Positions 24,656 through 51,002 of a stretch of 64,000 nucleotides of DNA are shown here, one piece after another. The notes below the pieces were generated by a model, which worked only from the letters and a program-made list of their open reading frames with translations, made no database searches and had not been told where the DNA came from. The position numbers were made by a program, and so were the translations under genes. Position 1 is the first letter of the stretch, and each line of letters starts with the position of its first letter. This DNA is from Candidatus Aminicenantes bacterium (GTDB lineage: Bacteria > Acidobacteriota > Aminicenantia > UBA2199), in contig JAUWQW010000002.1 in the NCBI GenBank assembly GCA_030610885.1, positions 7,375 through 71,374 of the forward strand, in the 5' to 3' direction.

Positions 24656-24720
24656 TTTCCCCTCCAGATTTATACTAAAAGCCTTAAATTAAAATGTCAA
24701 CAAATATTTAAAAAAAAATC

Positions 24721-24766
24721 AAAAAAATTAGTCTATTTTATTGACAATTAACTTCTAATGGATGAC
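24721..24766. repeat. 46-bp direct repeat copy A (AAAAAAATTAGTCTAT-N4-TTGACAATTAACTTCYAATGGATGAC), 42/46 identical to copy B at 30581-30626
   Basis: Direct visual alignment of the two copies; they bracket the 5.8-kb Avs-containing block. Confidence 0.8.
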
Positions 24767-27700
24767 CCCAGAATTCACACGCCCCCGTGCGGGAGGACAA
24801 CAGCCATAGGCTTTTAGTGAAATTTACCTGCTAGATTTTCTTATATATTTACCAGCGGTCATGTGCGGTTACTATGCTATCTACTCCGTAAATCTCATGG
24901 GAAAGCATAAGGTCGATCAAATCGAGAATTTTTTTTCTCGCCTCCGCGTTCGATTCAGATGATGTGTATTCGCGCTTCAGAAGATCCTGGAGCTGATGCA
25001 CATCGGTACTGAGCCGTCTATGTTGATCGCCTTTCTCCGTAATATCTGTGATGACTTGTTGAGTCGCTTCAATAACAAGATCAAGCACGTCACAAGTAGC
25101 ATCTTCCAGCATGTGCAAAATAGAGAACCCGTTATCCGGGAAAGCTGGTGATTTCAAAAACACAGCCGCGAGCTCTCGATATAACTCAACTTCTTTTGCT
25201 TGAACATTTCTGAATGCGTTTGCAGCTTTATTGCGAACTTGCTCATCTTCATCGAAGAAAAACTCTTTTAAAAGGGCTTCGGTGCGATGCCTATTCTCAG
25301 CCCAATTTATTGCATCACCTGTAACAGCAGACAAAAGCCGTCGATGATCAATGCTTACAGAAGTCAGATTATCGGCTTTGTCAATGTAGGCTTCGTTTTG
25401 AAAGCTTTCGCAGAACACAAGCCATGCTCCTATTAGTTCTTTTGTTTCGTCCCCGCTTTTTAACAGTTTTGTGACAAGTTCGTCAGCGAGTTCTGGTAAC
25501 CAATAGAAAATATACGGAAATAAGTGAATACCAGTATGGGTAATGAGTGGAGAAAGGCGCGTTGCATCGTATTGGTGTGGCGTACCATCCGGAAGGATAA
25601 TCAACCTGCGAATTGAATCAGAAAAACGCTTCTTGTTCATATTGAATAAAGGTGTCAGCGGTTTCATCATACAGCATCGCACACTGATTAGTGTCTCTTT
25701 CTCAAGAGCGATTTCAATTGCTTTCCAGACTCGGATCTCTGTCTTTGGAACTTTCCACAGAATAGAACCCAATGCTTCCCACGCCCTACCACGCGCATTG
25801 ATACCACGGATATGAAAACACTCACCTCGTTGAACGAGCATATTGATGTCTATTGTTTCGCGTTCTGTATTCTGTTCATCTGAATCTTCATTCTCATTCG
25901 CTTCTCCGTTCAGGGCATACCAAACCAATATTTCTAGTATTTCAGAATCGCCAGCGACATGAGGATGTCTTTCGAGTAACCGAGCGATATCACTGCCAAA
26001 AGGCTTATCTGGATGCTGGTGAGCACGTTTAATTGCTTGAGTTAACGATATATCAGAAGGAGCTTCCGCCTCTGCCAAACCCCATAGAATATTTTCGGTA
26101 TATGAGTGGTGAGCTGTGTCAGGGATTTTCAGACTTAAATCTGAGAACCGAATTGGGTCTTTTTTGGTAGCTTCCTGAAGTTCTCTAGCGAGCTCTCTCG
26201 CTCCGCCATCAATAAAATTGCGACCTCGACGTCTATCTTCATCATTGTCGTAGCGTTTTATTACAGACAACCAATGATGGTCTTTCATCCTATCACATTG
26301 TGCCCGCTTGATTGGAGAACCAACACAATGCAACTCCATATGGTTTGGCTCCGCAATTTTTTCTTTTGGAAATTTTCGGCGGAGTCCATACAGGCGTGAC
26401 TGAGTAACCGAATTGAGCAACTCTTCACCTATTGTTTCGAGAATACACCATTGCTTGTATCCTGAGAGATTAAGGTAACGTATGACTCTCTTTTTTGTCC
26501 GAAAGGGTTCTGTTTCGCCCTTCTGATTGATTTCTCTAAGAAGGCGAATAGCAAGATCGATTTCCGGGGTATGGTCGAGAATAGCCTGTTCAACAACCTT
26601 CTTCTCTCCAGAATTTAGATGCGGCAACGCCACATGGCAAGTATGGGCAAACGACAACCAATCAGCTCCATCCCAACCGGCACCAAAAACCATTTCGTTG
26701 GTTACAAGCGTGGATAAACGGTTCCCAAAAACAGTTGGGTTGGCTTGAATTATTTCTAAATGCAAATGCATCAGGCATTCATGCTTATAGGGATCAAGTT
26801 TTTCAAGATAGATGGTTGCTGTCTCTGGATCTTCTTGAGCAATTTTCTTGAGAGATGTACGGTACATTCCCAGAAATTCATCAAATCCGAAACGATGTCC
26901 CGAGTATGTTCTATAATTAAAATTGTACCAGCTTCCCCCGGTTTCACCTTCCGCAATCACCATGTCAATCGAACGGACTATTGCGTCAGTCGTCCCTAGC
27001 AAAAATGTTTGCGGTGTTTTTTTTGCAATCTCGGCAAGAGAGTGGGTGTCAATCGCTTTCAACTCGTCGTGCTCAAACGGATTACACCCGGGATTAAATG
27101 CAAACCAAGCCTCGAAAAGCGAATAAAGAATGCGCCCACAACGCTCAGGTGATTTTTTTCCCCATGTATGTAGCAACATCATAATGCGATGCCCTTGATC
27201 CTGGAACAGATCGTTGGGGTGCGAATTGATTACATCTTCGCATAATTGCAGAAGATCATCATCAGGTTTTCCACGTCTAACAAAACCGAACCAATTTAGG
27301 AGTCGTTTTGCACGTTCCGTATCGCTGCCCCACCAAGAACGTAATAGACTTGCGACTTCTGCTGGCCGTTCCCCTGCAATATTGGAAAGCCACCACAACA
27401 CCATTTCAGCACGTTCTTTGTCGTCACCGTCAATTTGCTTTGGAATCCAACTTTTTTCATTCAGCAAATCAAACCATGCATGAGTGGACAAAACCGCATT
27501 ACGGAAAAGCAGATGGAACTTTCCGCTTTGCTCATCAAATCGAGAAATTATCTCAAATTCCTGTTCACTAGGTTTTTCGACAGAGTTTAACCATTGGCAG
27601 ATAGCAGTCTTAATATGAAAGCGAATATCGTTACTTGAAAGAACCGACGAAAGTTCGATGAGATAACGCTGAAAATCATTTTGCCTTAAAGCTTCAAGAA

Positions 27701-29580
27701 TCTGCCGTACTTGTGTCCGCCGAAAAAGATGCTGTTCTGTTGCTGTAAGCAGATCAACTAAGCTCACGTCTTGATTTACAAATGCTCTTGCATAGATATG
27801 ATCAAAAAAGCTCTCGTGGAAAAAATTAACTTGACCACGAGACGAAATAATCAATCCTTCGGATGTCAAAATATCGACAGCGCCTAGAAAGGCATCCAAA
27901 ACCGAAACTGGAGCACTCAATTTTTGCCGCTCGCTCATCCAATTACACATGACTGTCAATGGCTGGACCAGTGACCAAGGCGGTTTTCGTTCTTTTGTTA
28001 TGGTGCGCTGTTTTTTCTCGATCAGTTTTTCGTGCAAATTTGATCGGGAATAAAATGAAAATTCCGAATCATCGATTTCCAGAAAAACTGCAAGATTAAT
28101 AGGTAAGCGAAGCAATTGGCGTTGTGGTTCATTTAACGAAGATGCATCAACGTCTTTATTTTTCAGAAGCGGCTCGATATCTGCTTTCCAATCAAGTAAG
28201 GGGACATCAATCGTTTTTGCTCGATTAGCCTCTTTCAGTCTCTTTAACCTCGGATCACTATCCAGATCAAATGTTCGGCACACAACGACAATTCTAACAC
28301 CTCCGAAATTGTGCGCATCGGTAATCAGCCGAAATATAACTTCTTTAACCTGTCCATCACGGCCCGATACCTCGCTGACAGCATCAACTTGATCAATAAA
28401 CAGAATGGAAGGTGTGGTTGGGAATGTCCCCTTCAGAGTGCTGACAGGGCCTTCTTCTCTGCCTGTCAGTTTCTTTCCGAGTTCCTCCCTTGTGCCGCAC
28501 GATAAATAGTGGTCAACTCTAAGTGCTAAATGAGGAACGTTGAGTTCACGGAGTTGCTCGATTACACCACGTACAATACCCGATTTTCCAGAACCAGCAA
28601 TACCCGTCAACAACACTAATTCTGGACCATCAGATTTGAGTATTTCATCGACAAGAGTGCCTGATTGACCCCTGGGAATCGTCTCTCCACCTGCGCCAAA
28701 AGGTGTATATGTTTGAAGATATGCTTCGGTTTCATCTTTCAACCGCTGTTGAATAGTAGGGTCAAACGCCCATTCCTTAAACTTCAGCACCCCTTGTAAT
28801 TTTATAGCATTTCGTGCAGATTCTGACGTAAGGGTTTTATTAAAATTATTTTCAAGGATATCTCGAAGATTAGGATAAGCAGCTTTCCCGCCACTTTGGA
28901 AGTATAGATCATCGTGAGATTCAATAAATAAGTCCAGGTCTATTTCAGAAATGATTCTAACATAGCTTCGTTTAAGCCAGTCGAATGCGACTTCATCGGG
29001 CTGCTGCCACTCATTTTTTAATTGCTGAAAGGAACCATTTTGATCCCCAGAAAGTATTTCCGCATATTGTTCATGTGAGTTTGAAATCCGCGCTTTTTCT
29101 GTAAGGGTTCTAAAATCTTTAGCATTGTCTTGAGAGACAAAATAGCAATATGCCTTCTTATCTGCCAATAACCGATTAGCAAATGCTTTTAATACTCCCT
29201 CTTTCTTAAGAGCATTTATTGTCCAGTTTCCTTTTGGAGCATTAACCTTGGTTTGATGCCACTCTGTAATTTCCCCACGAGCAATCGCAAATTCGAAACC
29301 TTGATATTCTGTTTCAACACCTTCGAAATTCAACCAATGTGCCTTGTCAGCAATTACATCCATTAGAGATCGGACCAGCCACTTCGCTTCGTATCGATTT
29401 CCGAGTTTATCTGCTATTCCACCTGGTATCATTTTAGGTCAGTCCAAATATTAGTTTTCATCCTAATGGGAAAAGACAATTTTATTTCACTCATATGCTC
29501 TTTATTGGACGACTGCATTTGCTGCCACAACAGAATACATAACGGTGGAAGTGAGAAAAAAAATAGAGTCATCCATTAGT
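24755..29580. mobile_element. compositionally foreign (visibly GC-richer) ~4.8-kb cassette bounded by a perfect 12-bp inverted repeat CTAATGGATGAC (24755-24766 and 29569-29580), carrying one gene (Avs-like STAND NTPase); no transposase/integrase inside
   Basis: Sharp base-composition shift coincident with the inverted-repeat ends; both terminal repeats read directly from the sequence. Confidence 0.5.
24849..29432 (-). CDS. antiviral STAND (Avs)-like NTPase: N-terminal Cap4/DUF4297-like PD-(D/E)xK nuclease domain, P-loop NTPase, long C-terminal helical-repeat sensor region
   Basis: 1527 aa. N-terminus GG...G.RYEAKW...D....EGVETE...EFAI..GEITEWHQTKV fits the D-E-QxK nuclease pattern. Walker A LLTGIAGSGKSG, Walker B-like SILFIDQVDAV, then ~1100 aa of helical repeats. 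Foreign GC content. Confidence 0.7.
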   Translation of the reverse strand: MIPGGIADKLGNRYEAKWLVRSLMDVIADKAHWLNFEGVETEYQGFEFAIARGEITEWHQTKVNAPKGNWTINALKKEGVLKAFANRLLADKKAYCYFVSQDNAKDFRTLTEKARISNSHEQYAEILSGDQNGSFQQLKNEWQQPDEVAFDWLKRSYVRIISEIDLDLFIESHDDLYFQSGGKAAYPNLRDILENNFNKTLTSESARNAIKLQGVLKFKEWAFDPTIQQRLKDETEAYLQTYTPFGAGGETIPRGQSGTLVDEILKSDGPELVLLTGIAGSGKSGIVRGVIEQLRELNVPHLALRVDHYLSCGTREELGKKLTGREEGPVSTLKGTFPTTPSILFIDQVDAVSEVSGRDGQVKEVIFRLITDAHNFGGVRIVVVCRTFDLDSDPRLKRLKEANRAKTIDVPLLDWKADIEPLLKNKDVDASSLNEPQRQLLRLPINLAVFLEIDDSEFSFYSRSNLHEKLIEKKQRTITKERKPPWSLVQPLTVMCNWMSERQKLSAPVSVLDAFLGAVDILTSEGLIISSRGQVNFFHESFFDHIYARAFVNQDVSLVDLLTATEQHLFRRTQVRQILEALRQNDFQRYLIELSSVLSSNDIRFHIKTAICQWLNSVEKPSEQEFEIISRFDEQSGKFHLLFRNAVLSTHAWFDLLNEKSWIPKQIDGDDKERAEMVLWWLSNIAGERPAEVASLLRSWWGSDTERAKRLLNWFGFVRRGKPDDDLLQLCEDVINSHPNDLFQDQGHRIMMLLHTWGKKSPERCGRILYSLFEAWFAFNPGCNPFEHDELKAIDTHSLAEIAKKTPQTFLLGTTDAIVRSIDMVIAEGETGGSWYNFNYRTYSGHRFGFDEFLGMYRTSLKKIAQEDPETATIYLEKLDPYKHECLMHLHLEIIQANPTVFGNRLSTLVTNEMVFGAGWDGADWLSFAHTCHVALPHLNSGEKKVVEQAILDHTPEIDLAIRLLREINQKGETEPFRTKKRVIRYLNLSGYKQWCILETIGEELLNSVTQSRLYGLRRKFPKEKIAEPNHMELHCVGSPIKRAQCDRMKDHHWLSVIKRYDNDEDRRRGRNFIDGGARELARELQEATKKDPIRFSDLSLKIPDTAHHSYTENILWGLAEAEAPSDISLTQAIKRAHQHPDKPFGSDIARLLERHPHVAGDSEILEILVWYALNGEANENEDSDEQNTERETIDINMLVQRGECFHIRGINARGRAWEALGSILWKVPKTEIRVWKAIEIALEKETLISVRCCMMKPLTPLFNMNKKRFSDSIRRLIILPDGTPHQYDATRLSPLITHTGIHLFPYIFYWLPELADELVTKLLKSGDETKELIGAWLVFCESFQNEAYIDKADNLTSVSIDHRRLLSAVTGDAINWAENRHRTEALLKEFFFDEDEQVRNKAANAFRNVQAKEVELYRELAAVFLKSPAFPDNGFSILHMLEDATCDVLDLVIEATQQVITDITEKGDQHRRLSTDVHQLQDLLKREYTSSESNAEARKKILDLIDLMLSHEIYGVDSIVTAHDRW

Positions 29581-30467: not shown

Positions 30468-30580
30468 CATAAAAAATAAATAATTAAGATATCTCTTTTT
30501 AAAACAAATGAGAACGGTTGAAATGTTTAAAAATATAACAGCAGCTAAAGTTGAATATTTTTTTAAAACCAGATAAAATA

Positions 30581-30626
30581 AAAAAAATTAGTCTATCTAC
30601 TTGACAATTAACTTCCAATGGATGAC
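30581..30626. repeat. 46-bp direct repeat copy B (partner of 24721-24766); also contains AATGGATGACTCT shared with the inverted right end of the Avs cassette
   Basis: Direct alignment: 4 mismatches in 46 bp versus copy A. Confidence 0.8.
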
Positions 30627-30764
30627 TCTTATAGTCCTCCTAGGAGGAAGGAAGGTAATTCTTCCATTTTTTCATCTCACCTATTGACATTCAGGTAACT
30701 TTTACCTATATTTAGATCAAAGGATGTAAAACGATTTTCCTATTTTGTGTTAAAGGGGGTTGGT

Positions 30765-31346
30765 ATGAAATGTCCAGAATGTGGGAAAAATTTTCCTCAA
30801 GATAACAAATTTTGCCCTGGCTGTGGGAAGAAAGTGTCGGATTTTATTTGTAATGCAGTTAATCAGTCAAAAAACAAAAAAGGAGTATATTTAACAAAAG
30901 AAGAAGAAAAAAGAAAAGCTGAATTATTGAAAAAGGGTACACCTACATGGCAAATGATTTTGTTATTAATTATATTTGTGGGTGGATTTTATGCAACTTT
31001 CATTTATGATTCACCGAGTGATAAAAAACCTGTTTCGGTTCAAAAACCCAAACGTCCCGAAATGAATGCATTTGTAAGATATTACCAAGGAATGATTGAA
31101 GTCACTAATAGAAACAATTACGACTGGACGCCCAAAGAAACATGGGAGGGTAAGGCTATCAAATTGGAAATAAACGATAAGTTTACATATTACTATAGGG
31201 GTAAAATGAAGGCAGGACAAACTTACAAAATACCAATTCTCAGCTTTTCTAAAAAAGATGGCACAAGGTTTAATATATTGATTTATAAACTTAAAGTAAT
31301 TTTGATAACAGGCAGTGAAGGTATAGAGATTTTGAATTGGAATTAA
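30765..31346 (+). CDS. zinc-ribbon membrane protein, function unknown (start refined from the GTG at 30747 to ATG 30765)
   Basis: MKCPECGK...CPGCGK zinc ribbon, one TM helix (ILLLIIFVGGFYATFI). RBS AAGGGGGT before ATG 30765. Upstream CTATTGACA-N17-TATATT promoter at ~30683-30716. Confidence 0.5.
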   Translation: MKCPECGKNFPQDNKFCPGCGKKVSDFICNAVNQSKNKKGVYLTKEEEKRKAELLKKGTPTWQMILLLIIFVGGFYATFIYDSPSDKKPVSVQKPKRPEMNAFVRYYQGMIEVTNRNNYDWTPKETWEGKAIKLEINDKFTYYYRGKMKAGQTYKIPILSFSKKDGTRFNILIYKLKVILITGSEGIEILNWN

Positions 31347-32320: not shown

Positions 32321-32408
32321 ATCATTTACTTATTTTTAAGTTTGCCTATTGGCATTATATAAAGTAGCCCTTCTCCTTTTTCAGAAATGTGTTCATCATT
32401 TTTCCTAA

Positions 32409-32487
32409 ATCTATTGACAATGAACAATAATTCTCCTAATATTTCATTAAGATGAAAAAAGGATTTTCCTATGGTGTCTTCCGTTGA
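32409..32487 (+). promoter_or_regulatory. conserved promoter-leader module copy C: TTGACA(32414-32419)-N17-TAATAT(32437-32442), leader, AAAAAAGGA RBS-like tract, ATG; short uORF MKKGFSYGVFR (32452-32487). ~90% identical over ~65 bp to copy D at 46948-47017
   Basis: Direct alignment of the two copies, which sit upstream of unrelated genes. Confidence 0.55.
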
Positions 32488-32593
32488 AGAACATTCACAA
32501 TCTTGAAAGAGAGAGATTAACTTGTATATATTAAAAAATGTATAAGGATGAGTTAAAGGAAGCATTATACGAAAGAGATGGAGAAAAATAAAT

Positions 32594-34015
32594 ATGATAT
32601 TTAAAAGGTTAAAGGAAGAATATGATTCCTACGAAAGTTTAAAACAGATCTGGGAAAAAAGGTCAACAATATTTATTTTAGAATTAATCTGGGTCATATT
32701 CATTTTATTTATATTTGTTGTAAAATATATTGATCTAAATTTCAAATCCATAAAGGGGATTATAACAAATTACATTGCGCTTCGAAATTTACTGGCAATT
32801 TATGTTTTAATAGCATTATTGATATTTGTGATATGGTATTTTAAGAGAAAAATCCCAAATATCCCTAAAGATAGAATTGGTATAATTTTTGCGATATCCA
32901 CAAAAAATCTAAGAAAAAAAAACATAATCAAAGAAGATTTTATCAGGAGAATGAAAACAGAGATTGCTTCTATTTCAACAGATAGATATGTTGTTGAAAT
33001 ACTTTCTGAATATCGATCATCTTTAATAATTGAGCCAGAAAATGAATCGGATGTATTAAAAGAGACAAACAAATATCTTAAAAGATCTAATGCTAAATTA
33101 TTAATTTTTGGAATTGCTCAAGAAAGGAATATGGCAGGGAAAGAGTATTACAATCTTATTTTAAATGCAGTCATCTCTCACCCAAATATTGACAAATCTA
33201 TAAGTGTACGGATCGGACATGATATGAGATTGGCATTACCAGAAGAAACTAGAATACCTATAGAAGACGAGTTAAGAGGCTTTGAAATTGTATCTTCACT
33301 ATATGGAATTTCGGCGAAGTTGTTTATTGGAATTGCAGATTATATTTCCCAAGATTATAGAAGGGCAATAAAAATTCATAAGTTGGTGCTAAATGAATCT
33401 GAAAACAAACCTGTAACCACTGAACTAGAAAAAACAGTACTTTTAAATATAAAAAATATTTCTAAAAAAGCTCTAATTGGCGAATGTATAGAACTTGTTA
33501 TTAGTCATTATAGAAGGACAGGTGATTATGAAGGTATGTCTGATGTATTGGACTTAGCGAAAGAAATTGACCCCAAAAATAAACCGATGGCGCTAAGCAG
33601 GGCCATTTATTATTTTCTAAATGGAAGAAATATCAAAAAGTCATTAAAAGAACTTGAAATTGCCAAAAACACAAAAGATTATACATGGGCTTATAGCATG
33701 GCATTCATAGAGGGATATGTAGGCAATTTAGATGAAGCATACAAATTATATCGAAGGGCATCTGAAAAGAAGTCAGTTCTGGATTCGTATATTCAATGTG
33801 AAGAATTTATATATAAAATCATTGAGGAGGAACCAGATAAAATCCAGTTATATTATTGCCTGGGACTGCTTATGTATATGTCAAGGGAAGACATGAAGCT
33901 TGCTAAAGAGAATTTTGAAAAATTTATAGAGCTAGCTGAAGAGAGAAAATTATTTAATGAACACGTAAATCATTCGAAAAATTATTTAAACAAAATAGAA
34001 TTAATAGGAAAATAA
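32594..34015 (+). CDS. membrane protein with two N-terminal TM helices, a cytoplasmic alpha/beta-like domain and a C-terminal TPR-like helical region; candidate partner/effector of the downstream TIR protein
   Basis: TM helices IFILELIWVIFILFIFVV and LLAIYVLIALLIFVIWYF. 27-bp gap to the TIR gene, same strand. Confidence 0.5.
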   Translation: MIFKRLKEEYDSYESLKQIWEKRSTIFILELIWVIFILFIFVVKYIDLNFKSIKGIITNYIALRNLLAIYVLIALLIFVIWYFKRKIPNIPKDRIGIIFAISTKNLRKKNIIKEDFIRRMKTEIASISTDRYVVEILSEYRSSLIIEPENESDVLKETNKYLKRSNAKLLIFGIAQERNMAGKEYYNLILNAVISHPNIDKSISVRIGHDMRLALPEETRIPIEDELRGFEIVSSLYGISAKLFIGIADYISQDYRRAIKIHKLVLNESENKPVTTELEKTVLLNIKNISKKALIGECIELVISHYRRTGDYEGMSDVLDLAKEIDPKNKPMALSRAIYYFLNGRNIKKSLKELEIAKNTKDYTWAYSMAFIEGYVGNLDEAYKLYRRASEKKSVLDSYIQCEEFIYKIIEEEPDKIQLYYCLGLLMYMSREDMKLAKENFEKFIELAEERKLFNEHVNHSKNYLNKIELIGK

Positions 34016-34042
34016 TAAAAATAAGTATGAAAGTGATATACA

Positions 34043-35032
34043 ATGAGCTATATGTCAGATAACTCTGAATCAATTATCTCTTTATTAAAAAAGAAATTAG
34101 ACCTTAAAGGATTAGACAAAGAATATCGTGTACTTGAAATTGGAAGAAGTGAAATTATAGAAGTAGAATACGACAGTTGGGGGCGGGGACAGTATTATAA
34201 TAATTTATATATTGAAATTCCGATTGAATTTTTTATTGAAATTGAGGTTGAAATTTCAAAAATTGAAGAACTTTTAAAAAAAGAACTGGAATCATTAAAC
34301 AGAGGTGATACAGGCGAGCATATCAGTTCAATCACAATAAATGCATCAAAAGAAACATCTCCTGCAGGAATTCCTTTATCAAAAATAAATAAAACTAATG
34401 GAGATTCTCTTTGGGAAAAAGGGAATTTTAGACTCTTTCTTAGTCATGTTTCAACTTCAAAGAAATTAGCACATGAATTAAAAGAAGATCTTCTTAAATA
34501 TGGGGTGTCAGCATTTGTAGCACATGATGATATAGAACCTACTTCTGAATGGCAACTAAAAATTGAGGAAGCACTTCAAAGTATGGAGGCACTTACTGCA
34601 ATAATAACCAAGGACTTTCAGAGTAGTTTTTGGTGCGATCAAGAGACTGGAATTGCAATAGGATTAAAAAAACTAGTTGTTCCTGTCCGTATGGGTGCGG
34701 ATCCACATGGATTCTTAGGAAAGTATCAGGGACTATCTGGTTTTGATAAAGAAGCTATCCAAATTTCAAAAGAAATCTTTACTGCATTGACCGGACATGA
34801 ATCTACAAGAATTAAAATGGCATTAGCGGTAATTCAACTTTTTGTTCATTCTGATTCATATTCCAATGCCATATTTAACATGAGTCTTCTTGAACAACTT
34901 CCTGTAATAACTCCAGATATGGCAGAGCAACTAAAAAAATCAGTTAATGAAAATTCACAAATAAATGGGGCTTTTGGTATTTCTGAACGTGTATCTCAAT
35001 TACTGAATAATAAGGGCTATAAAACTAGGTGA
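34043..35032 (+). CDS. TIR-domain protein (bacterial TIR_2-like, ThsB-like), with ~125-aa N-terminal and ~100-aa C-terminal extensions of unknown fold
   Basis: aa ~128-225: FRLFLSHVSTSKKLAHELKEDLLKYGVSAFVAHDDIEPTSEW...ALTAIITKDFQSSFWCDQETGIAIG...LVVPVR matches the TIR pattern (FISH/SY start, I.PG..W loop, S.WC..E with conserved Glu). Confidence 0.65.
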   Translation: MSYMSDNSESIISLLKKKLDLKGLDKEYRVLEIGRSEIIEVEYDSWGRGQYYNNLYIEIPIEFFIEIEVEISKIEELLKKELESLNRGDTGEHISSITINASKETSPAGIPLSKINKTNGDSLWEKGNFRLFLSHVSTSKKLAHELKEDLLKYGVSAFVAHDDIEPTSEWQLKIEEALQSMEALTAIITKDFQSSFWCDQETGIAIGLKKLVVPVRMGADPHGFLGKYQGLSGFDKEAIQISKEIFTALTGHESTRIKMALAVIQLFVHSDSYSNAIFNMSLLEQLPVITPDMAEQLKKSVNENSQINGAFGISERVSQLLNNKGYKTR

Positions 35033-35365
35033 TTATTTTCTTAAAATGTTTTAAAAATCTTATCTGCAGTAATAATCGAACTTTTTGGAGAATTTTCCAC
35101 AGTAGGGGAAAGCTAAAGGGGACAGTTAATTTATCTTACCTATGTTAACCTGTTTTTTCTGGGGCTGTCATAAATTGCCAAAATTTTCATTTTTACACAA
35201 ATTTTTGATTTCTAAATGTATCAGTACAGATTATATTTATCAAGGATGATAATAACAGAAAATTAAATATCCAAGGAGCGGATATTTTAAGATTTTAAGT
35301 TTTATTAAAAATATGATATAAATTTATTTTATATTGGTTTTTTAAACAGAATCAGGAGATTTTTA

Positions 35366-36436
35366 ATGAAAAATAAAAATAAGTCAGAAAAGATGAAACA
35401 TGCAACTGATATGTTACTAAAAGAACGTAATTTTATTTCAGCTATTCTGGAAACTACTGGTGCACTGGTTGTCCTTTTTGATAGTCAGGGGAGATTTATT
35501 CGAACCAATGAAGCGTTTGAAAGAATCACAGGTTTTGAAATAATTGATATTGTTGGCAAAACATTTTGGGAAGTTTTGTTAATACCGGACGATGTGGAAC
35601 ATATAAAGGGAATATTAGATAAAATAATGTCAGGAGAATTCCCCGTTGAATATCAGAGTAAAATTGTTACCAGAGGAGGCAAGACACGATCGATTGTATG
35701 GTCAATAACTGCACTGAAAGATGGTAGAGGGACTATTGAATATATTATTGGATCCGGAATTGATATTACAGAAAGCATGGTTGTTAAAGAGCTATTAAAA
35801 GAGACCAGTCAGAACCTTATTCAGAGTGAGAGGAAGTACAGAAGCCTTATCGCCAATATGCCGGGTGCCGTATACCGCAGCAGATTAAGTAGTGAGGATT
35901 CAGTAGAGTTTTTAAATAACCAGATTGAAGAAATTTCGGGATATCCGGCATCCGATTTTTATCAGGATCGGAAGAGATCGTTTAAAAGCATTGTCTATCC
36001 AGATGATTATGAATGTTTAATGAAAACCATTCAGAAGGGAATTGATAAAAAAGAACCCTATAGAGTTGAATATAGGATCTTACATGTTGATGGTTCGGTT
36101 CGATGGGTATCTGAGAGAGGTCAGGGCATTTTTGATGAAGATGGACAGGTTTTATGGATTGATGGAATGATTTTTGATATTACTGAACGAAAGAATCTTG
36201 AGAAAGAGAGAGAGGTAATGATCAGGGAACTGACCGATGCATTGAATAAGGTTAAAACACTTCGAGGGCTTTTACCCATTTGTTCGAATTGTAAAAAAAT
36301 CAGGGATGATAAGGGGTACTGGAATCAGATTGAAGAGTATATAAAGGAGTATTCAGATGCGGAATTCAGCCATAGTATTTGTCCGGAGTGTGCTCAAAAA
36401 TTGTATCCTGAGTTTTATAAAAAAAAATCGGAATAA
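35366..36436 (+). CDS. PAS/PAC sensor protein with C-terminal Cys-rich zinc-ribbon-like tail; no kinase or GGDEF output
   Basis: Two PAS-like segments (FISAILETTGALVVLFD..., NMPGAVYRSRLS...). C-terminus LPICSNCKKIRDDKGYWNQIEEY...FSHSICPECAQ. Confidence 0.6.
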   Translation: MKNKNKSEKMKHATDMLLKERNFISAILETTGALVVLFDSQGRFIRTNEAFERITGFEIIDIVGKTFWEVLLIPDDVEHIKGILDKIMSGEFPVEYQSKIVTRGGKTRSIVWSITALKDGRGTIEYIIGSGIDITESMVVKELLKETSQNLIQSERKYRSLIANMPGAVYRSRLSSEDSVEFLNNQIEEISGYPASDFYQDRKRSFKSIVYPDDYECLMKTIQKGIDKKEPYRVEYRILHVDGSVRWVSERGQGIFDEDGQVLWIDGMIFDITERKNLEKEREVMIRELTDALNKVKTLRGLLPICSNCKKIRDDKGYWNQIEEYIKEYSDAEFSHSICPECAQKLYPEFYKKKSE

Positions 36437-36470
36437 TCAAAATGAATCAGATTTTTCTAAAAACATATAA

Positions 36471-37937
36471 ATGAAAGGAGATTATAGGATGAGAAAAGAA
36501 ATAAAAGTTATTTTTGTTTTTGTTGCAGTTATTATTATTTTGTTTTTATATTCATGCTCGGGAAAGGGAGAAGAGAAGAGAGATGCTCAAATAAATTCTT
36601 CTGAAAAGATTTATGAAAAAAAAGAACTAGGAGAACCAGCAACTCAACCCTCAGGGGAACAGAAAGTTCAAGAAAAATCGGTTAATAAAGCTGTTTGTGT
36701 AAATATAGTTCGGTTTTCATTTACAGATGAAGTGGCTAAGGTTAAAGCTCCTGCAGGTAAAATATTTCTGGTTCTTGAAACCAAATGGGAAAATATTCAT
36801 CCAAAACAGAAGATTGAGAAAAGCAAGCTAGAAGGAAAAAGAGATCACACAATGGGAATGAAAAAATTAATGCAGGGTGGAGAAGAGAAAAAAGAGGAAT
36901 ATGTAGATGCTGATGTAGCATACATGGTAAGAGAATTTGTAAATCATGCTTATATATTAGCTGATGGAAAAAGTTTCAGTATGGATAAAACCACAGCTGA
37001 GATTCCAGAAGGAATTAATCCCAAAGGTGATTTCATCCTTCCAAAATTTGGTGATACAAAAAAAGTTAAATTTGTTTTCCTGCTTCCAGGTGATCATGAG
37101 AATTTGGCATTCCATTTTTTTGATTATAATTACGGACATATTCTAATTCCAATCAAAGGGGATCCACTCATTGCAAGAGGTAAGGATCAACTGAAGGGAA
37201 AATTTCTTGGTGAAATTAAAAGTGATTTTGTCAATATCAATGCTCTTGAGATCAGATTTTCAAATGAATATAAAGGTAAAAAAGCACCTGACAGCTGGCA
37301 TTATGCTCTGGTTGATCTGGCAGGAAAGAGCCTCTCAGGACAAAGGGTGAAAGACATAGTTCAGATTAAGCCAGAATCTTATGTCTGGGTCAGTACTGAA
37401 GAGGGTTATCTTTACTATAGCTGTGGCGGAAGCACAACAGATGAGGGATTTATTCGCTTTACACCTGAGGTTTATCAGCAACAGAGCGTGGCTTTTCTAT
37501 TGCCTGATATAATTAAAAATATTAACCTGGGTATCCGGATACGCAATCAAGTGTTTGTTTTGAATCTTAGTAAAGATTTTAAAAAGAAGATTCCCAATCC
37601 TATTGAGTCACATCGGGATGGAGATGTGATGGAGGTAATGGTCTATGGGATTGAAAAGAGAGATAATAAGATTATCCTTAATCTTGGGATTCAATCTCTG
37701 GCCAAGAGCGGAGTGGAGATACAGAGAAAACAGCAGTTTATTCTGATTGCCAATGAACAGAAAATTTATTTGAATGATGATGAAACCAATTCAGGTCTTT
37801 TTCGTCCGCCTTCTCCCTTTGTAATTCCTCCAGGATTTTTTGTTCGTTTTGAACTTATATATACTTCTGATATATCTCCAGAAAAGCTTTATTTCAGGGG
37901 ATTTAAAAGTGAAAAATATTTTATATTAAAATTTTAA
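36471..37937 (+). CDS. hypothetical lipoprotein
   Basis: Signal peptide with lipobox LFLYSC|SG. 488 aa, no recognisable motif. Confidence 0.45.
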   Translation: MKGDYRMRKEIKVIFVFVAVIIILFLYSCSGKGEEKRDAQINSSEKIYEKKELGEPATQPSGEQKVQEKSVNKAVCVNIVRFSFTDEVAKVKAPAGKIFLVLETKWENIHPKQKIEKSKLEGKRDHTMGMKKLMQGGEEKKEEYVDADVAYMVREFVNHAYILADGKSFSMDKTTAEIPEGINPKGDFILPKFGDTKKVKFVFLLPGDHENLAFHFFDYNYGHILIPIKGDPLIARGKDQLKGKFLGEIKSDFVNINALEIRFSNEYKGKKAPDSWHYALVDLAGKSLSGQRVKDIVQIKPESYVWVSTEEGYLYYSCGGSTTDEGFIRFTPEVYQQQSVAFLLPDIIKNINLGIRIRNQVFVLNLSKDFKKKIPNPIESHRDGDVMEVMVYGIEKRDNKIILNLGIQSLAKSGVEIQRKQQFILIANEQKIYLNDDETNSGLFRPPSPFVIPPGFFVRFELIYTSDISPEKLYFRGFKSEKYFILKF

Positions 37938-37969
37938 TTAAAACATTTTAAAACTAAGAGAGGAGTTAA

Positions 37970-40900
37970 ATGGGGTTTAAACAAATTTTTAAAGATGGTT
38001 TTGGGGAGTTCAAGAGGCGTTCCAAAATAAAAAGATTAAAAAGAAAACTGACAATCAGAGAGAAAATATTTTCAGATGAATTAACTCTCCTGGGGCAGAA
38101 AGCCTGGGAATTAAAATTGGATTTAAGTGAATATAGTTGTATTACTGAACATATTATTTCTTCTCAAAATGATCTTGACAGTATTACTAAAAGACAGCAG
38201 GAACTAGAGAATCAGAGGGTACGGATTGAACAGAAAAGAGGATCAGAAAATGATAATTTTAATTCTCAGCTAAATGCAATTGAGGCTCGAAAAAAGGAGA
38301 TTGATTTAAAATTAGTTGAATTGAATAAGGAGTCCAGAGAGATACAGAAAGAAATTGATAGGATTCAAGATCGCCTCAACCAGATAAAACGAGAGAAGGA
38401 AAAACTTGAATTAAAGATTTCGGATAACCAGACGACAGATGAAGAAAAAGTTCCTATTGAGAAAAAAATACAGTCTATAGAAGAAGAGAGGAATAATCTT
38501 GAATTAAAACCAGAAAAATCATCTAAAAAAAAAGATGAACTTCTGGAAAGTATGATGCCCTTTGAGGATCAGTCAAGCAAATTCCAGGCAAAAATTGATG
38601 AAATAAGAAAAGAGCAAAAAACTATATCAGAAAAATATGACCAGGAACTGAAAAAAACACAAAGAGAGATTTCTGATTGTCAGAAGGAGCAAAAAAAGGC
38701 AAATAGAGAAAAAATTGGTTATTTTCATAAACTTGGAAAGGCCCTTTTCTCTTCAAATTTTGTGAATAAATCGGTTAATACAGAATTGAGTACTGTAAGG
38801 AATGCAAGCAGTGAAATAAAGAATCAGGAAATGGATATTAAATCCCTTGAAGAGAGTGGAACTCCGGAATCAAAGAGGGCATTGTGGAAGTTGACGGGCC
38901 TTGTGGTTTTATTATTTGTTTTAGTCGCTGGGATTGTTTTTGTGGTAAGGATGATATCCCCTCAGGAGAATGGTAAAGAGAGAGATAGAATCAAGGAAAG
39001 GCAGGTGGCTTCTTTAGCGGAGAGAGGTATTAAATCAACATTGAACAAAAGGGAATTTGCAAAGGATTCTCAGGAGCAAGTGATAAACAAAAATGTACAG
39101 ATCGATTGGAGTGATCTGGAAATATCAGAGCATACGCTGGAAGGATTAAACCAGATATCTTTTAAACTTGAGAATTTATTTCAGGAATTTGAAAATTCTG
39201 TTTCCAATTCAAAAAAAGAAATTTCAAGTGCTCAAAGAATTATGAGTGATATTGGGAAAGATAGTCCAGAAAAACTGTTTGGATGGGTTCGGGATAATAC
39301 ATTTTTTATTCCATATCAGGGATCTCTGAGAGGCTCTGAAGGGGTGTTAATAGATAGATTGGGCAATAGCTTGGACAGAGCGATTTTACTGCACAAATTA
39401 TTAAAACTGGCTGGATATAACACCCGCCTGGCCAATGGGAGATTGACATCTGAGCAATCAAAAGAAATAATAGAAAAAATAATACCACCTCCGGATATAG
39501 ATTCCTTTATAGATGGCATTCCCATCTTAGAATCGACCAGGGAGCTCATAAAAAGGTGTTCTCATGAATACGGTATTCCCCAAGATGAGTTATTTAAAAC
39601 AATAAAAGAGAAAAAAATAGAAAAACAGCAAACAGTTGCAAAGATATCTGAAAGGGTGAATAAACTGACACCTCAACTGCTGGATCTTGTTAGAAATTTT
39701 CAGGACACAGATGTCAAAAAGATGAGACGAACCATGCTTGAATCTATCCAGGATCACTGGTGGGTGCAGTTTCAAAAGGACTCCAACTGGGTTGATTTGG
39801 ATCCAACCTCACCAGATTCTTTACCAGATGAACGTTTAACTCAAAGTGAAAGATATATTCAGCCAGAAGAACTAAACGATTCTCTCCTCCACAGGATTAC
39901 AATAAGGGTAATCATTGAACAATGGAAGGATAAACAGTTAAAGGAGTTTGTGGTGCTGAGCCAAGAGTTGCAGCCCTCAAAATGGATTGGTAAACGGATT
40001 GCGCTGGGACATCATCCTGCAGAGTGGCCAAAGTCTATAAATCTCTTTAAAGAGAAAAAGCCTTTAAGTGCCTTGAGAAAAAAAATACTGGATCAGAAAA
40101 TATGGACCCCAGTATTGGTTATGGGATCAAAAAATGTAACGAGTTTGAGTTTCTCAGATACAGGAGAAGTAAGAAAAAAGGCTTTAAAGCGTAAAAAAGA
40201 TGTAAGGAGTATTTTAAAGACATTCTCACTATCTGGCAGAGCCATGCCTGGGGAGGATTTGAAAAAAGATCATAAAGGAAAATCCCAATTAACGGCAGAG
40301 TGGATCGAATACGAGATTTTCTCGCCGGGAAAGCCAACCAGGAAAATACGGAGAGAGGTGTTTGATTTAATAGGACCCGGTTCCCGTTTCAAAAAGGAGA
40401 TATCTATCCCAGTAATCTCTTTAAAATTGCAGATGGAAAGAAATCTGGCTCTCATGGGCCAAACTGAGATTCTGCCATTGTGCTGTCAGTTGTCAAAAAC
40501 CTTTGTTGGGAATTTGATAAATGGAATCTTTCTATCCACCAAGAAAAACTTGCTTTCTATCTTAAAGGAGAAAAATTTAAAAAATATCGATTTTGTAATA
40601 GATAAAATGAATCAGTTACAGATGAAACAGATTCAACTTTATAGGCTGGCTCTTGAAAGATACAGTAAGGATAACATAATTGTTACTCCGAATATTTTAA
40701 GTTTTCATTCTTTCCTCAAAGAAAGCCATGATGAATTTTTTAACTTATACAATGCACTTGATATTGTGTCCAATGAGGTCTATCCTATCCTGAATAATAA
40801 ACCTGAAAATTTTTTTCAGGTTCGATTGAGACAAGGAATACGTGATTCTATCACCGAATTAGTAGTTATGTCTCGTTATGGGGGTAAGGAGAATTTAGCT

Positions 40901-41443
40901 GAGTTGTGCAGAGAAATGGAAAGGAATGGCGTTATATGGCTGGCAGCAGATTCTTCTAAAAATATATCTTTACTTGAATCAAACCTTCCTGAAGATATTG
41001 TTGCCCGTATGAAAAAACAATTAAATCAAGGATTTGTTGTTGTTGCCCCAGAAAAGGTTGTTTTTATAAATAGTAAACCGGTTGTTATATGGTGGCGGAT
41101 AGATCCCAGAACTGGAGATACACTGATTATAGGAGAAAAGGGATGGGGCCAGGCTATGGTCGAATATGTCGAAGAGGTAAACATTGTTATTCAGATGAAG
41201 GATATTGTTGGGTTTTATTCCAATCTCATGAAATGTGTTTATATGTCATCCGCTTCCTTTATGACAGGCGGTAAGGCAAATCGAAATCTCTTTTACAGGT
41301 GCGTTTTAGAGTTGATTTGCAGTAAGGTAAACAGCGCTGTCGAGTCATTTTTGGATATTGAAGCCGACTGGACCAATTTTATTCTTAAGCAGACAATCGG
41401 GTATATCTGGGGAGAATTTTGCAAAGCACTTTTTGGGAATTAG
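37970..41443 (+). CDS. large single-pass membrane protein: N-terminal coiled coil, TM helix, transglutaminase-like (papain-fold) domain with Cys replaced by Ser
   Basis: 1157 aa. TM LVVLLFVLVAGIVFVV. TGase-like motifs GNSLDRAILLHKLLKLAGYNTRLANG (G-x-S in place of G-x-C), HWWVQF...NWVDLDPT (His and Asp motifs). N-terminus paralogous to the next gene. Confidence 0.6.
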   Translation: MGFKQIFKDGFGEFKRRSKIKRLKRKLTIREKIFSDELTLLGQKAWELKLDLSEYSCITEHIISSQNDLDSITKRQQELENQRVRIEQKRGSENDNFNSQLNAIEARKKEIDLKLVELNKESREIQKEIDRIQDRLNQIKREKEKLELKISDNQTTDEEKVPIEKKIQSIEEERNNLELKPEKSSKKKDELLESMMPFEDQSSKFQAKIDEIRKEQKTISEKYDQELKKTQREISDCQKEQKKANREKIGYFHKLGKALFSSNFVNKSVNTELSTVRNASSEIKNQEMDIKSLEESGTPESKRALWKLTGLVVLLFVLVAGIVFVVRMISPQENGKERDRIKERQVASLAERGIKSTLNKREFAKDSQEQVINKNVQIDWSDLEISEHTLEGLNQISFKLENLFQEFENSVSNSKKEISSAQRIMSDIGKDSPEKLFGWVRDNTFFIPYQGSLRGSEGVLIDRLGNSLDRAILLHKLLKLAGYNTRLANGRLTSEQSKEIIEKIIPPPDIDSFIDGIPILESTRELIKRCSHEYGIPQDELFKTIKEKKIEKQQTVAKISERVNKLTPQLLDLVRNFQDTDVKKMRRTMLESIQDHWWVQFQKDSNWVDLDPTSPDSLPDERLTQSERYIQPEELNDSLLHRITIRVIIEQWKDKQLKEFVVLSQELQPSKWIGKRIALGHHPAEWPKSINLFKEKKPLSALRKKILDQKIWTPVLVMGSKNVTSLSFSDTGEVRKKALKRKKDVRSILKTFSLSGRAMPGEDLKKDHKGKSQLTAEWIEYEIFSPGKPTRKIRREVFDLIGPGSRFKKEISIPVISLKLQMERNLALMGQTEILPLCCQLSKTFVGNLINGIFLSTKKNLLSILKEKNLKNIDFVIDKMNQLQMKQIQLYRLALERYSKDNIIVTPNILSFHSFLKESHDEFFNLYNALDIVSNEVYPILNNKPENFFQVRLRQGIRDSITELVVMSRYGGKENLAELCREMERNGVIWLAADSSKNISLLESNLPEDIVARMKKQLNQGFVVVAPEKVVFINSKPVVIWWRIDPRTGDTLIIGEKGWGQAMVEYVEEVNIVIQMKDIVGFYSNLMKCVYMSSASFMTGGKANRNLFYRCVLELICSKVNSAVESFLDIEADWTNFILKQTIGYIWGEFCKALFGN

Positions 41444-41485
41444 AATAAAAAAGTAAACTATTGAATTATATTGTTAGGAGGTAAA

Positions 41486-46600: not shown

Positions 46601-46636
46601 ATGGGTGGATGTGGAAGAAACTTTCAGCAAAATAGT

Positions 46637-46690
46637 TTTGAGTTGATGGGTAGATGTGTAAATGGGTAGATGGGTGGATGACAAGTGAAA
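46637..46690. repeat. direct repeat copy 1 of a GGGTAGATG-rich ~45-bp element (AGTTGATGGGTAGATG...GGTAGATGGGTGGATGA); partner at 47908-47960
   Basis: Direct alignment. The copies flank the HEAT-lipoprotein cassette. An 11-bp inverted repeat ATGTGGAAGAA (46608-46618 / 46754-46764) brackets the low-complexity tract. Confidence 0.6.
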
Positions 46691-46947
46691 AGGCAAAAGT
46701 AAAAAGTAGGGTCTGGGATTTGGGGGTTGGGATTTGGTGAAAAAGCTGAATGCTTCTTCCACATGAACTTGCACTTGAACATGAACTTAGACTTAAACTT
46801 AAACTGATAAAGGAAATACCATTTAACCAATCAACAATTAGTTCATTCAACTATTTAAACAAGTGTTTAGTTTTGAGTTAAAAAAAACGATACTAAAAAC
46901 TATCTATTCATAAAGATTTGTACAAAATTTTTAATGATCCAATTCGG

Positions 46948-47046
46948 TCTATTGACAATTAACAATAATTTCACTAATATTTCATTGAGATGAAAAAAGG
47001 AATTTCCTATGTTGTTATTTTTAAACAAAATATAACATTCAAATGA
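46948..47046 (+). promoter_or_regulatory. conserved promoter-leader module copy D: TTGACA(46952-46957)-N17-TAATAT(46975-46980); uORF MKKGISYVVIFKQNITFK (46990-47046) ending 8 nt before the main ATG
   Basis: ~90% identity to copy C (32409-32478) including the uORF start MKKG(F/I)SY. Confidence 0.55.
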
Positions 47047-47054
47047 GATTATAA

Positions 47055-47816
47055 ATGAAAAAACGACTGATTCTTTTTTGCGTATTTCTTTTTTTTATTT
47101 CTGCGTGTGGAGTCGATGAAGATGAAATTAACGAACTCGCCGAAGAATGTGCTGCAGGTGATCATGATGCCTGTTCAGAACTAGCCGACATTGCAAGGAG
47201 CGATAAAGATTGTAAAGTACGCTGCGTTGCAGGCGAGAAATTGACTGATCAAAAGATTATAGCCGGCATTGCAATGAGCGATAAAGATTGGGGAGTAAGC
47301 TTCGTTGCAGTCGAGAAATTGACCGACGAGGCTGCGTTAGCAAGTATCGCTCTTGAGGGTAATTTTCATAACAGTGCTGCCCTTAAAAAGCTGGCGGATC
47401 CAGCCGCACTTGCTAAAGTTGCTGTGGATGATAAAAACTGGAGAGTCCGCCTGATTCGTAAGTTTATAGCCGCGTTTGATTCCGTGCCAACTGAGCACAG
47501 AGAACGTCTCATGTTGGCCGTTTTTCCGGCTATTCGTACATTAAGCTATCCAGCAGTTTCTTCTAAAGTCGGAGATATAGTTTCAATCAAAACAAACTGG
47601 GATGGCACGAGCCAATATTACACCGGGGTTTTTATAGGACATAAGCCCGGCGAAATGTTCACATTTTCGATTAAAGTTCGAAAACTGACTGAACCTCTGT
47701 CGCATACATGGGGCACAAACTTTCCATTCAAAACCTCAAGTTTGTCATTTTTGCCTGCTGACATTAATGCCTCTGATCTCTATCAAAAAGCATTCGATAA
47801 GCTGACCGACAAATAG
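47055..47816 (+). CDS. HEAT-repeat (PBS-lyase-like) lipoprotein, visibly GC-richer than flanks
   Basis: Lipobox FFISAC|G. Repeated D(K/D)DxxVRxxAxEKLTD / DKNWRVR units typical of HEAT-like repeats. Confidence 0.55.
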   Translation: MKKRLILFCVFLFFISACGVDEDEINELAEECAAGDHDACSELADIARSDKDCKVRCVAGEKLTDQKIIAGIAMSDKDWGVSFVAVEKLTDEAALASIALEGNFHNSAALKKLADPAALAKVAVDDKNWRVRLIRKFIAAFDSVPTEHRERLMLAVFPAIRTLSYPAVSSKVGDIVSIKTNWDGTSQYYTGVFIGHKPGEMFTFSIKVRKLTEPLSHTWGTNFPFKTSSLSFLPADINASDLYQKAFDKLTDK

Positions 47817-47907
47817 ATTCTCACCGACATCACAAGGAACGATAAATGTGAAAAGGGGTCAGGTCTCAACATTAGACATTCAATGTAAAAGGCAATATTA
47901 GTTCTAA

Positions 47908-47960
47908 GTTTTAAGTTGATGAGTAGATGGGTAGATGGGTGGATGAGTAAAGAGTGAATT
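47908..47960. repeat. direct repeat copy 2 of the GGGTAGATG-rich element (AGTTGATGAGTAGATGGGTAGATGGGTGGATGA)
   Basis: Direct alignment with 46637-46690. Confidence 0.6.
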
Positions 47961-50993: not shown

Positions 50994-51002
50994 CATAAAT
51001 AT

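Follow-up and report, generated by a model that had tools for sequence, protein, structure and literature searches.

Similar upstream regions of 50–100 nt that precede non-homologous genes, within one genome and across related genomes, have been described as putative mobile promoters (PMPs) (Matus-Garcia, Nijveen & van Passel 2012, PMC3488235; also PMC3575422). The genes upstream of such regions are non-homologous too, and the regions are mostly not insertion sequences (IS), miniature inverted-repeat transposable elements (MITEs) or riboswitches; the criteria applied were upstream regions of more than 50 nt aligned at 80% identity or more, with non-homologous upstream and downstream coding sequences (PMC3488235). 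Here, a repeated promoter-plus-leader module was analysed in a 64,000-nt stretch of contig JAUWQW010000002.1 (positions 7,375 to 71,374) from the Candidatus Aminicenantes assembly GCA_030610885.1, referred to below as the window. An earlier reading of the letters alone, the original prediction, had noticed two copies of this module before unrelated genes and had taken them for a portable expression module, or the conserved 5' end of exchangeable gene cassettes, rather than for coincidence. These copies are named W1 and W2, and a third, diverged copy is named W3 (Table 1).

A second parallel is offered by the upstream homology boxes of the Borrelia erp (ospE/F-related) genes, in which a promoter/operator, sometimes with the start of a leader peptide, is common to unrelated lipoprotein genes, having been spread by recombination and being under common regulation (reviewed in PMC10016077). 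Those boxes occupy syntenic positions on paralogous cp32 prophage plasmids and have known binding proteins, whereas the copies studied here are chromosomal, lie at non-syntenic sites before many gene classes and have no known binding protein. One likeness is seen at another locus, L101, where the module ATG starts a lipoprotein signal peptide. Bicistronic designs are said to have been engineered by Mutalik et al. in 2013. In such designs and in natural leader mini-cistrons, a short first cistron lies behind the promoter and stops close to, or at, the start of the gene, so that expression depends less on the downstream sequence (PMC5995908, PMC8601185).

Two copies of one module precede unrelated genes

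A repeat search of the window returned W1 and W2 as a direct repeat of 68 nt with 90% identity, and the positions and sequences of both copies, as well as the TTGACA-N17-TAATAT promoter with a 17-nt spacer in each, were as originally described. A degenerate pattern of 64 nt with up to three mismatches matched W1 and W2 only, with 0 matches in 100 dinucleotide shuffles. Because the 31-nt stretch 3' of the -10, searched alone, also had W1 and W2 as its sole matches, their likeness exceeds a generic -35/-10 consensus, the point on which the prediction had said it could fail. The proteins encoded downstream of the two copies are unrelated, as had been claimed (BLASTP E = 0.23), those encoded upstream are not homologous either (E = 0.088, short patches only), and the Pfam content differs. 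W1 ends 116 nt 5' of the ATG at 32594 and W2 ends 39 nt 5' of the ATG at 47055, which places the pair within the published definition of PMPs. Sequence comparison makes it probable that W1 and W2 are members of a dispersed family of ~80-nt promoter-plus-leader modules of the PMP class. W3 lies 5' of a zinc-ribbon gene (30765–31346) and reads TTGACA-N17-TATATT-N20-GATTTTCCTAT.

Table 1. Module copies, their parts and the associated cassettes in the window
Feature	Position	Strand	Details
W1, module copy (family A)	32410–32477	+	90% identical to W2; nhmmer extent 32400–32479; E = 4e-23 against the family profile
W1, upstream extension	32370–32409	+	Common only to L006; 108 nt at 96% in all
W1, sigma-70-type promoter	32414–32442	+	TTGACA 32414–32419, 17-nt spacer, TAATAT 32437–32442; hexamers kept across the family
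W1, mini-ORF 1, MKKGFSYGVFR*	32452–32487	+	ATG 9 nt past the -10
W1, CCTAT box, AAAAAGGATTTTCCTAT	32456–32472	+	Includes Shine-Dalgarno-like AAAGGA; last block conserved in all module types; swap junction
W1, alternative mini-ORF 2, MVSSVEEHSQS*	32471–32506	+	Starts at the ATG 7 nt past AAAGGA
W2, module copy (family A)	46948–47015	+	nhmmer extent 46938–47016
W2, upstream extension	46862–46947	+	Common to L008; 151 nt at 91% in all
W2, promoter	46952–46980	+	TTGACA 46952–46957, 17-nt spacer, TAATAT 46975–46980
W2, mini-ORF 1, MKKGISYVVIFKQNITFK*	46990–47046	+	Stop 8 nt 5' of the lipoprotein ATG
W2, CCTAT box, AAAAAGGAATTTCCTAT	46994–47010	+	
W3, module copy (diverged, W3 type)	30676–30748	+	TTGACA 30684–30689, N17, TATATT 30707–30712, box TAAAACGATTTTCCTAT 30727–30743
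Cassette 1: 5' UTR and 473-aa TM/TPR gene (32594–34015)	32457–34044	+	95.4% identical in L157/L158
Cassette 2: 5' UTR, 253-aa HEAT-repeat lipoprotein gene (47055–47816) and 100 nt	46995–47917	+	98.7% identical in L137 (889–1811)
ORF, open reading frame; UTR, untranslated region; TM, transmembrane.

Some further features surround W1. Gene callers of public assemblies report a 79-aa ORF on the minus strand (32326–32565) straight across the copy; this is probably a spurious call, since W2 has no counterpart and the region is a non-coding repeat. A promoter-like site, TTGAAA-N18-TATATT, is found between W1 and the 473-aa gene (32503–32532), as is an upstream ORF (uORF) of 17 codons, MYKDELKEALYERDGEK*, which runs from 32538 to 32591, ends 2 nt 5' of the ATG of that gene and is also present in L157 with one substitution.

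The module belongs to a dispersed family in Candidatus Aminicenantes

Further copies were sought, and their downstream genes tabulated, as the prediction had proposed. A gapped pattern run over one genome per species gave 8 more copies, all in four metagenome-assembled genomes (MAGs) labelled Candidatus Aminicenantes, and a scan of metagenome contigs anchored on the leader alone and confirmed by profile (E 1e-9 to 1e-18) gave at least 14 further full or partial copies. Counting W1 and W2, at least 24 distinct copies of this family, called family A, were found before unrelated genes in the four MAGs and in sediment and groundwater metagenomes. The host is an AT-rich lineage, the genome matches all being labelled Candidatus Aminicenantes. 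The alignment, start-codon and hairpin counts given below refer to the 24 distinct family-A copies.

Mean column identity in the alignment was 75%, with the consensus [TTTTTCATnnAT]CTATTGACAAT(G/T)AACAATAATTCnnnTAATATTTCA(TTGAG/ATATG)AT(G/T)AAAAAAGGA(A/T)TTTCCTAT(GG)TGT(T). Each copy is built of TTGACA-N17-TAnnAT, a start codon 6–9 nt past the -10 and a tract rich in A (AAAGGA), and ends in a box, AAAAASSAWTTYCCTAT, referred to here as the CCTAT box. The -10 variants TAATAT, TATTAT, CATAAT, TATAAT and TACAAT all keep A2 and T6, and 80–90% of the copies that were anchored on the leader have retained TTGAC and, in the -10, the T and A. Judged as a consensus match only, the hexamers and their spacing agree with what defines a sigma-70 promoter, a TTGACA -35 and a TATAAT-like -10 that lie 16–18 nt apart.

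Similarity is lost sharply a few bases past the box, after CCTATnnTGT, beyond which the sequences are unrelated. The 5' edge is ragged: L097 and L061b are without the -35 half, and the units of 83, 93, 108 and 151 nt that loci have in common finish at one and the same 3' point. W1 and L006 share 40 extra 5' bases, and W2 and L008 share 86, at loci otherwise non-syntenic with the window. Several short-read contigs (L003–L005, L135 and L136) end at the module, as would be expected of a repeat. The copies also cluster, with three in a 16-kb part of the window and pairs in L011, L039 and L061.

In 18 of 20 cases, the module and the first ORF of at least 90 aa after it have the same orientation, which has a probability of ~2e-4 under random orientation, and this ORF usually lies 0–290 nt away. 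The Pfam content of the downstream genes is unrelated, comprising TPR/TIR, HEAT, FabH-like, Kre9/KNH, DNA methylase-SNase, amidohydrolase, amidase_2, aldehyde dehydrogenase, PD40 and Uma2.

The same cassettes lie behind different module types

The closest homologue of the 473-aa protein encoded 3' of W1 is 93% identical and is found on L157 and L158, and that of the 253-aa lipoprotein encoded 3' of W2 is 98% identical and is found on L137. In L157/L158, cassette 1 has a W3-type promoter 5' of GATTTTCCTAT and other neighbours (HNH and EMARD_N genes), without a TIR gene. In L137, a W3-type promoter lies 5' of ...CCTATGTTGTT, with a clustered regularly interspaced short palindromic repeat (CRISPR) array beyond. 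The modules at these loci read TTGACA-N17-TACAAT or CATAAT, N19, GAWTTYCCTAT. The left junction of both swapped cassettes falls inside the CCTAT box. The presence of the same cassettes behind different module types is, as a comparison of sequences, the decisive result for exchangeability. Together with the co-orientation and with the number of copies before unrelated genes, these two orthologous cassettes, joined at the 3' end of the module, bear out the idea of a portable module or exchangeable-cassette end. The converse is seen in L009 and L026, which have the same module and downstream gene, with unrelated sequence 5' of the -35.

The CRISPR array of L137 (40–597) contains 9 exact copies of CTTTGAACTCTACCTATAAGGAATTGAAAC and a degenerate last repeat, ~250 nt 5' of the module and lipoprotein cassette; the repeat was not found in the window. 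A relation between it and the CCTAT box, with which it has CCTAT and AAGGAATT in permuted order, was considered and is unconvincing, probably a coincidence.

The features described so far suggest how the module may work. Each module contains a near-consensus sigma-70 promoter, TTGACA-N17-TAnnAT, from which transcription would be expected to start ~7 nt past the -10, at or 1–3 nt before the conserved ATG/GTG. The first ~25 transcribed bases, which are conserved, would hold the start codon, the A-rich AAAGGA and the box AAAAASSAWTTYCCTAT, and in family A also a second ATG 7 nt past AAAGGA; the locus-specific 5' UTR and the gene would begin after the box. From the module, the downstream gene would receive its transcription and, probably, ribosomes loaded early on a short throw-away ORF. 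The genes so served would be the TM/TPR(+TIR) genes for W1, the HEAT lipoprotein gene for W2 and the zinc-ribbon gene for W3; the mini-ORF peptide would have no conserved function. Comparison with L137 and L157/L158 points to reshuffling of modules and cassettes by recombination with the left junction in the CCTAT box.

PMPs are an operational class without a defined anatomy or mechanism. The family described here differs in its fixed architecture of promoter, near-leaderless start, AAAGGA and CCTAT box, and also in its sharp common 3' edge, its sister families in other lineages and the two direct module replacements at orthologous cassettes.

The CCTAT box is common to four module types

The box AAAAASSAWTTYCCTAT is found in family A, in the W3 type, in a GC-rich family B and in family C. 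It lies 18–20 nt past the -10 in three of these types and 16 nt past it in the GC-rich type. W3-type modules (W3, L137 and L157) read ...GGAGG(T/C)AAAACGAWTTYCCTAT. Family B (L031, L050–L053 and L059) has no start codon, whereas family C (~40% GC; L077, L084 and L108), which reads TTGAAT-N17-TATTAT-N9-ATGAAAAAGGATTTTCCTAT, keeps the start in 4 of 4 copies. Both families, which were noticed among metagenome matches that had seemed random, come from other metagenomes and end at the AAAAAGGAWTTTCCTAT box, with similarity lost right after it, 5' of unrelated genes. L068, L113 and L116 are also among the loci of the GC-rich sister repeat, and one of the copies in L108 lies 5' of a Phd/RelE-like pair.

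Possible roles of the box are those of an operator, of a signal in the 5' UTR or of a site of recombination. If it were the operator or 5'-UTR site (~+8 to +24) of one lineage-wide regulator, the promoters would be alike through co-regulation, a reading that is compatible with a dispersed promoter family and that we regard as unlikely, although with some claim to attention. It would fit the observation that the box is the only block common to four otherwise diverged module types, 16–20 nt past the -10, and that the family-A box holds the palindrome AGGAA-T-TTCCT. However, the W3 type does not have this palindrome (it reads ACGA...TCCT or CCCT), and co-regulation leaves unexplained both the 90% identity over spacer and flanks and the sharp common 3' edge. 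Furthermore, the window holds no box other than those of the three modules (near-matches numbered 11, with 13 expected by chance), and no regulator gene is consistently nearby. A second tandem promoter, TTGAGA-N17-TATGGT, which would explain the TAT-NN-T pattern, was also considered and rejected, as it fits one family-A sub-variant only and not W3, B or C.

A bolder idea, for which the chances appear slim, is that AAAAASSAWTTYCCTAT (~+8 to +24) is the recognition and crossover site of an undescribed cassette-exchange system in Aminicenantes and neighbouring lineages. In that case, the module types A, W3, B and C would be interchangeable "expression heads" behind which genes are captured or swapped precisely, and arrays of individually promoted cassettes would be built in defence-type islands by an integron-like logic with the site at the 5' end.

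The start codon is conserved but the mini-ORF is not

All 24 family-A copies have a start codon, either at position 0 or, in those copies where GATGAAA became GATTAAA or GATTGAA, as an in-frame ATG or GTG located 3 nt upstream. With the first ATG 6–9 nt past the -10, the geometry is of the leaderless type, and from the 9-nt distance in W1 its mRNA would therefore be leaderless or nearly so. In L101, a 242-aa lipoprotein (MKKGISYCVFAVCLLVLISGC) has no possible start other than the module ATG. The second start, 7 nt past AAAGGA, is ATG or TTG in 21 of the 24 copies and opens long ORFs at some loci, for example that of an N-terminally truncated Uma2 gene in L049; W1 mini-ORF 2 is retained in L157 as MLSSVEEHSQS*.

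Both mini-ORFs of the original prediction are present in W1 and W2, and the second does end 8 nt before the downstream ATG. The further suggestion that a conserved uORF or leader peptide couples expression of the downstream gene to translation held for the start codon and for several stops that lie near the next start, but not for the peptide. In a stronger form of this suggestion, the selected function of the module would be a short leaderless ORF that loads ribosomes for the downstream start or protects the 5' end of the mRNA. The conserved start of family A, with its compensating in-frame shift, and that of family C favour such a device. So does the position of the stop, which overlaps the next ATG (ATGA) in L007 and L119, precedes the next start by 8–11 nt in W2, L010 and L039a (8, 11 and 11, respectively) and by 24–36 nt in L009/L026, L008 and L011b. 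The different module of L137 also gives an in-frame start, MEVKRIPYVVIFKQNITFK, with the same C-terminal peptide, ...YVVIFKQNITFK, as the W2 mini-ORF. Yet the mini-ORFs, of 11–42 aa, are unconserved past residue 7, and codons 8–9 vary in the nucleotide pattern TAT-NN-TGT, which is not codon-like, the TGT being conserved across a codon border. The mini-ORF of family C is in another frame because it has one A fewer, that of W3 consists of ATG-TAA alone, none is present in L157 or family B, and the W1 stop lies 106 nt 5' of its gene. In AT-rich leaders, some stops would lie near starts in any case, and the copies are too few for a test of this point. A translation device as the selected function is doubtful. 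Neither a conserved peptide or conserved codons nor an ORF in all members, as expected of a regulatory leader peptide, was found; coupling through a uORF or leader peptide is weakly supported by these sequences, and coupling of a mini-ORF to the next gene is possible. The module may resemble the bicistronic designs, but its coupling geometry is variable (-4 to >100 nt) and the mini-ORF is missing in sister types.

A structured cis-regulatory RNA or a small RNA gene in the conserved leader is largely refuted and has very little probability left. Two small hairpins, TTTCAT-N4-ATGAAA and AGGA-N3-TCCT, can be drawn, and the differences between W1 and W2 fall in loops. However, the one pairing that RNAalifold retained on the 24 copies was the invariant AGGA/UCCU hairpin of 4 bp (-2 kcal/mol, with 0 compensatory changes), whereas the TTTCAT/ATGAAA hairpin was broken in 10–12 of the 24, and explicit pair counts gave no measure above shuffles. 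Rfam searches at the gathering threshold and at E up to 10 gave no relevant match, and no terminator follows the leader. With no covariation and no Rfam family, a structured RNA was rejected, and the leader could not be classed as a cis-regulatory RNA, riboswitch or attenuator.

Known types of mobile element account poorly for the module

Several observations weigh against the module being a dispersed mobile promoter. No target-site duplication was seen in the flank comparison (3.84 versus 3.80 ± 0.17), no terminal inverted repeats were found beyond the 8-nt TTTTTCAT/ATGAAAAA of a subset of copies, and no recombinase lies consistently near the copies. In two cases, L006 and L061a, the ORF that the copy faces is convergent. 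Conservation of the spacer nearly equals that of the hexamers, so that much of the identity comes from recent common descent and not from constraint. Both scans were also run with patterns that fixed part of the motif (CTATTGACA, TA...TT and GAWTTTCCTAT in the first, ATTT...AAAAAGGAWTTTCCTAT in the second), and conservation inside those stretches therefore comes in part from how the copies were found. Finally, both swap cases come from one lineage pair (the window and Joint Genome Institute samples 3300042087/89).

The module might instead be the terminus of a mobile element (IS, MITE or an HUH-type outward promoter end) or an integron-like capture site with crossover at the CCTAT box, which we consider improbable. 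An element end would agree with the sharp 3' and ragged 5' edges, including the copies without a -35 half and the units of different length with the same 3' point, with the position of both cassette/module junctions at the box, and with the clustering of copies. Some modules also abut 5'-truncated genes (Uma2 in L049 and an RND-transporter fragment in L108), and Y1 (REP-associated tyrosine transposase (RAYT)-like) or IS91-like transposase genes adjoin modules in L010, L128 and L011 and lie 4 kb away in the window. Set against these points is the lack of target-site duplications and of a terminal inverted repeat signal, for which a MITE or IS end was rejected. The L010 RAYT unit has its own inverted repeats, with the module outside them, and mobilisation by RAYT or IS91-like enzymes was accordingly set aside despite adjacency at three loci.

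The integron promoter (Pc)/attI platform is, from general knowledge, alike in its conserved promoter platform, exchangeable genes, precise junction and clustering in variable or defence-type islands. Here, however, each cassette has its own promoter module instead of one Pc, no integrase domain is encoded in 30.7–48.8 kb or between W1 and W2 (32478–47015), no attC-like structure is present, the junctions do not fit the GTTRRRY core, and the right ends of the cassettes share no motif. An integron cassette system was rejected for want of IntI, attC and this core. Duplication of an att site by an integrated 14.5-kb element between W1 and W2 was rejected as well, there being no integrase and many solitary copies elsewhere. 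Carriage by phages found no support: viral contigs hold no module copies, and 15 IMG/VR matches are unrelated coding sequence. An invertible promoter flanked by TTTTTCAT/ATGAAAAA was dismissed, since these repeats occur in a subset of copies only and the segment, at 54 nt, is too short; the two patterns used in the searches were each specific to one orientation.

Neisseria Correia elements (general knowledge) and the repetitive extragenic palindromic (REP) sequences and REPINs associated with RAYT (PMC8049555) are, like the module, short dispersed intergenic repeats able to supply promoters. The window also has a RAYT-like gene with its own REP-like repeats, a further likeness to REP/REPIN systems. 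Nevertheless, the module lacks terminal inverted repeats and the palindromic structure of a REP, no duplication of TA or of another target sequence accompanies it, and the RAYT genes of the window and of L010 are flanked by other repeats, which in the window differ in sequence from the module. The spread of the promoter family is most simply read as the outcome of recombination between modules, homologous or by short homology.

The RAYT-like Y1 (IS200-like) transposase gene of the window lies at 51034–51933 on the minus strand, between inverted REP-like arms at 50701–50753 and 51956–52008, and this locus (50701–52008) includes a 241-nt tandem duplication (50755–50995 and 51028–51268). Its REP-like sequence (AAAAGGGACGGTCTTTTGAAGTATTGA) is found several times in L159, and homologous RAYT genes are found in L010 and L128. 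In L011 (flipped, 5041–5361), an IS91-like (HUH, Y2) transposase fragment runs straight into a module copy, and in L131 (787–902), the last ~30 nt of the module are partly duplicated in tandem.

The copies lie in a region with defence-island-like content

The 473-aa TM/TPR gene 3' of W1 is followed by a gene for a TIR protein (34043–35032), whose domain was confirmed by Pfam (PF13676, E = 8e-14). The predicted TM/TIR operon is not a fixed unit, as the same 473-aa gene has no TIR gene after it in L157. The description of the segment 3' of W2 as a GC-rich HEAT-lipoprotein cassette agrees with the HEAT/HEAT_2 domains of its homologues and with a GC content of ~40%, against ~30% in the surroundings. 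Exact-protein look-ups of 47055–47816, 48192–48824 and 41486–46600 gave zero records.

The region from ~24.7 to 52 kb, bounded by glycosyltransferase and epimerase genes, has defence-island-like content. Besides the TIR protein, it encodes a STAND NTPase, a double-PAS protein, a transglutaminase-like protein of 1157 aa, a VWA protein of 1709 aa and, on the minus strand at 49010–50380, a winged helix-turn-helix protein with a pPIWI-associated nuclease domain.

Other repeats were observed in the same region. Two copies of a second dispersed family, 52 nt long, 90% identical and with a sharp 3' edge, lie at 24715–24766 and 30575–30626 and read AAAATnAAAAAAATTAGTCTATnnnnTTGACAATTAACTTCyAATGGATGAC; further copies are in L007 (6437–6507) and L159 (3696–3769). 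The pair brackets a segment of ~43% GC that holds a 1527-aa STAND-type NTPase gene (24849–29432, minus strand) and two small ORFs and that looks like an inserted island. At 46634–46681 and 47907–47954, and also in L008, L137 and L159, AGTTTTNAGTT is followed by 8-nt (GGTAGATG)n units 3' of genes; the homology of the lipoprotein cassette between window and L137 stops exactly at 47917, within this motif. A promoter-like repeat of ~100 nt, which contains TTTATTGACATTAG...TATAAT, lies at 48076–48179, 5' of the ORF 48192–48824, and recurs with 84–88% identity in L159 (193–289 and 3244–3347). It is probably a further mobile-promoter family of the same lineage.

Significance

Mobile promoters are known as a concept; the new points here are a unit with a defined anatomy, a box that recurs across families and swaps of modules that occurred in nature. 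Where descriptions of mobile promoters have mostly been statistical, this family offers a clear anatomy, a common end and two natural before-and-after comparisons of a cassette. The 17-nt box, present in several module types of differing GC content, is open to tests of each role proposed for it (operator, 5'-UTR signal, recombination site), and the module is a candidate for a compact, context-independent expression part. It also explains the assembly breaks at these sites and the probably spurious call of a 79-aa ORF. If the inference holds, the family illustrates the way in which newly acquired genes are wired into expression in an uncultured lineage; these genes would include the TIR and STAND neighbours in the defence island and the GC-richer lipoprotein gene, which may be of foreign origin.

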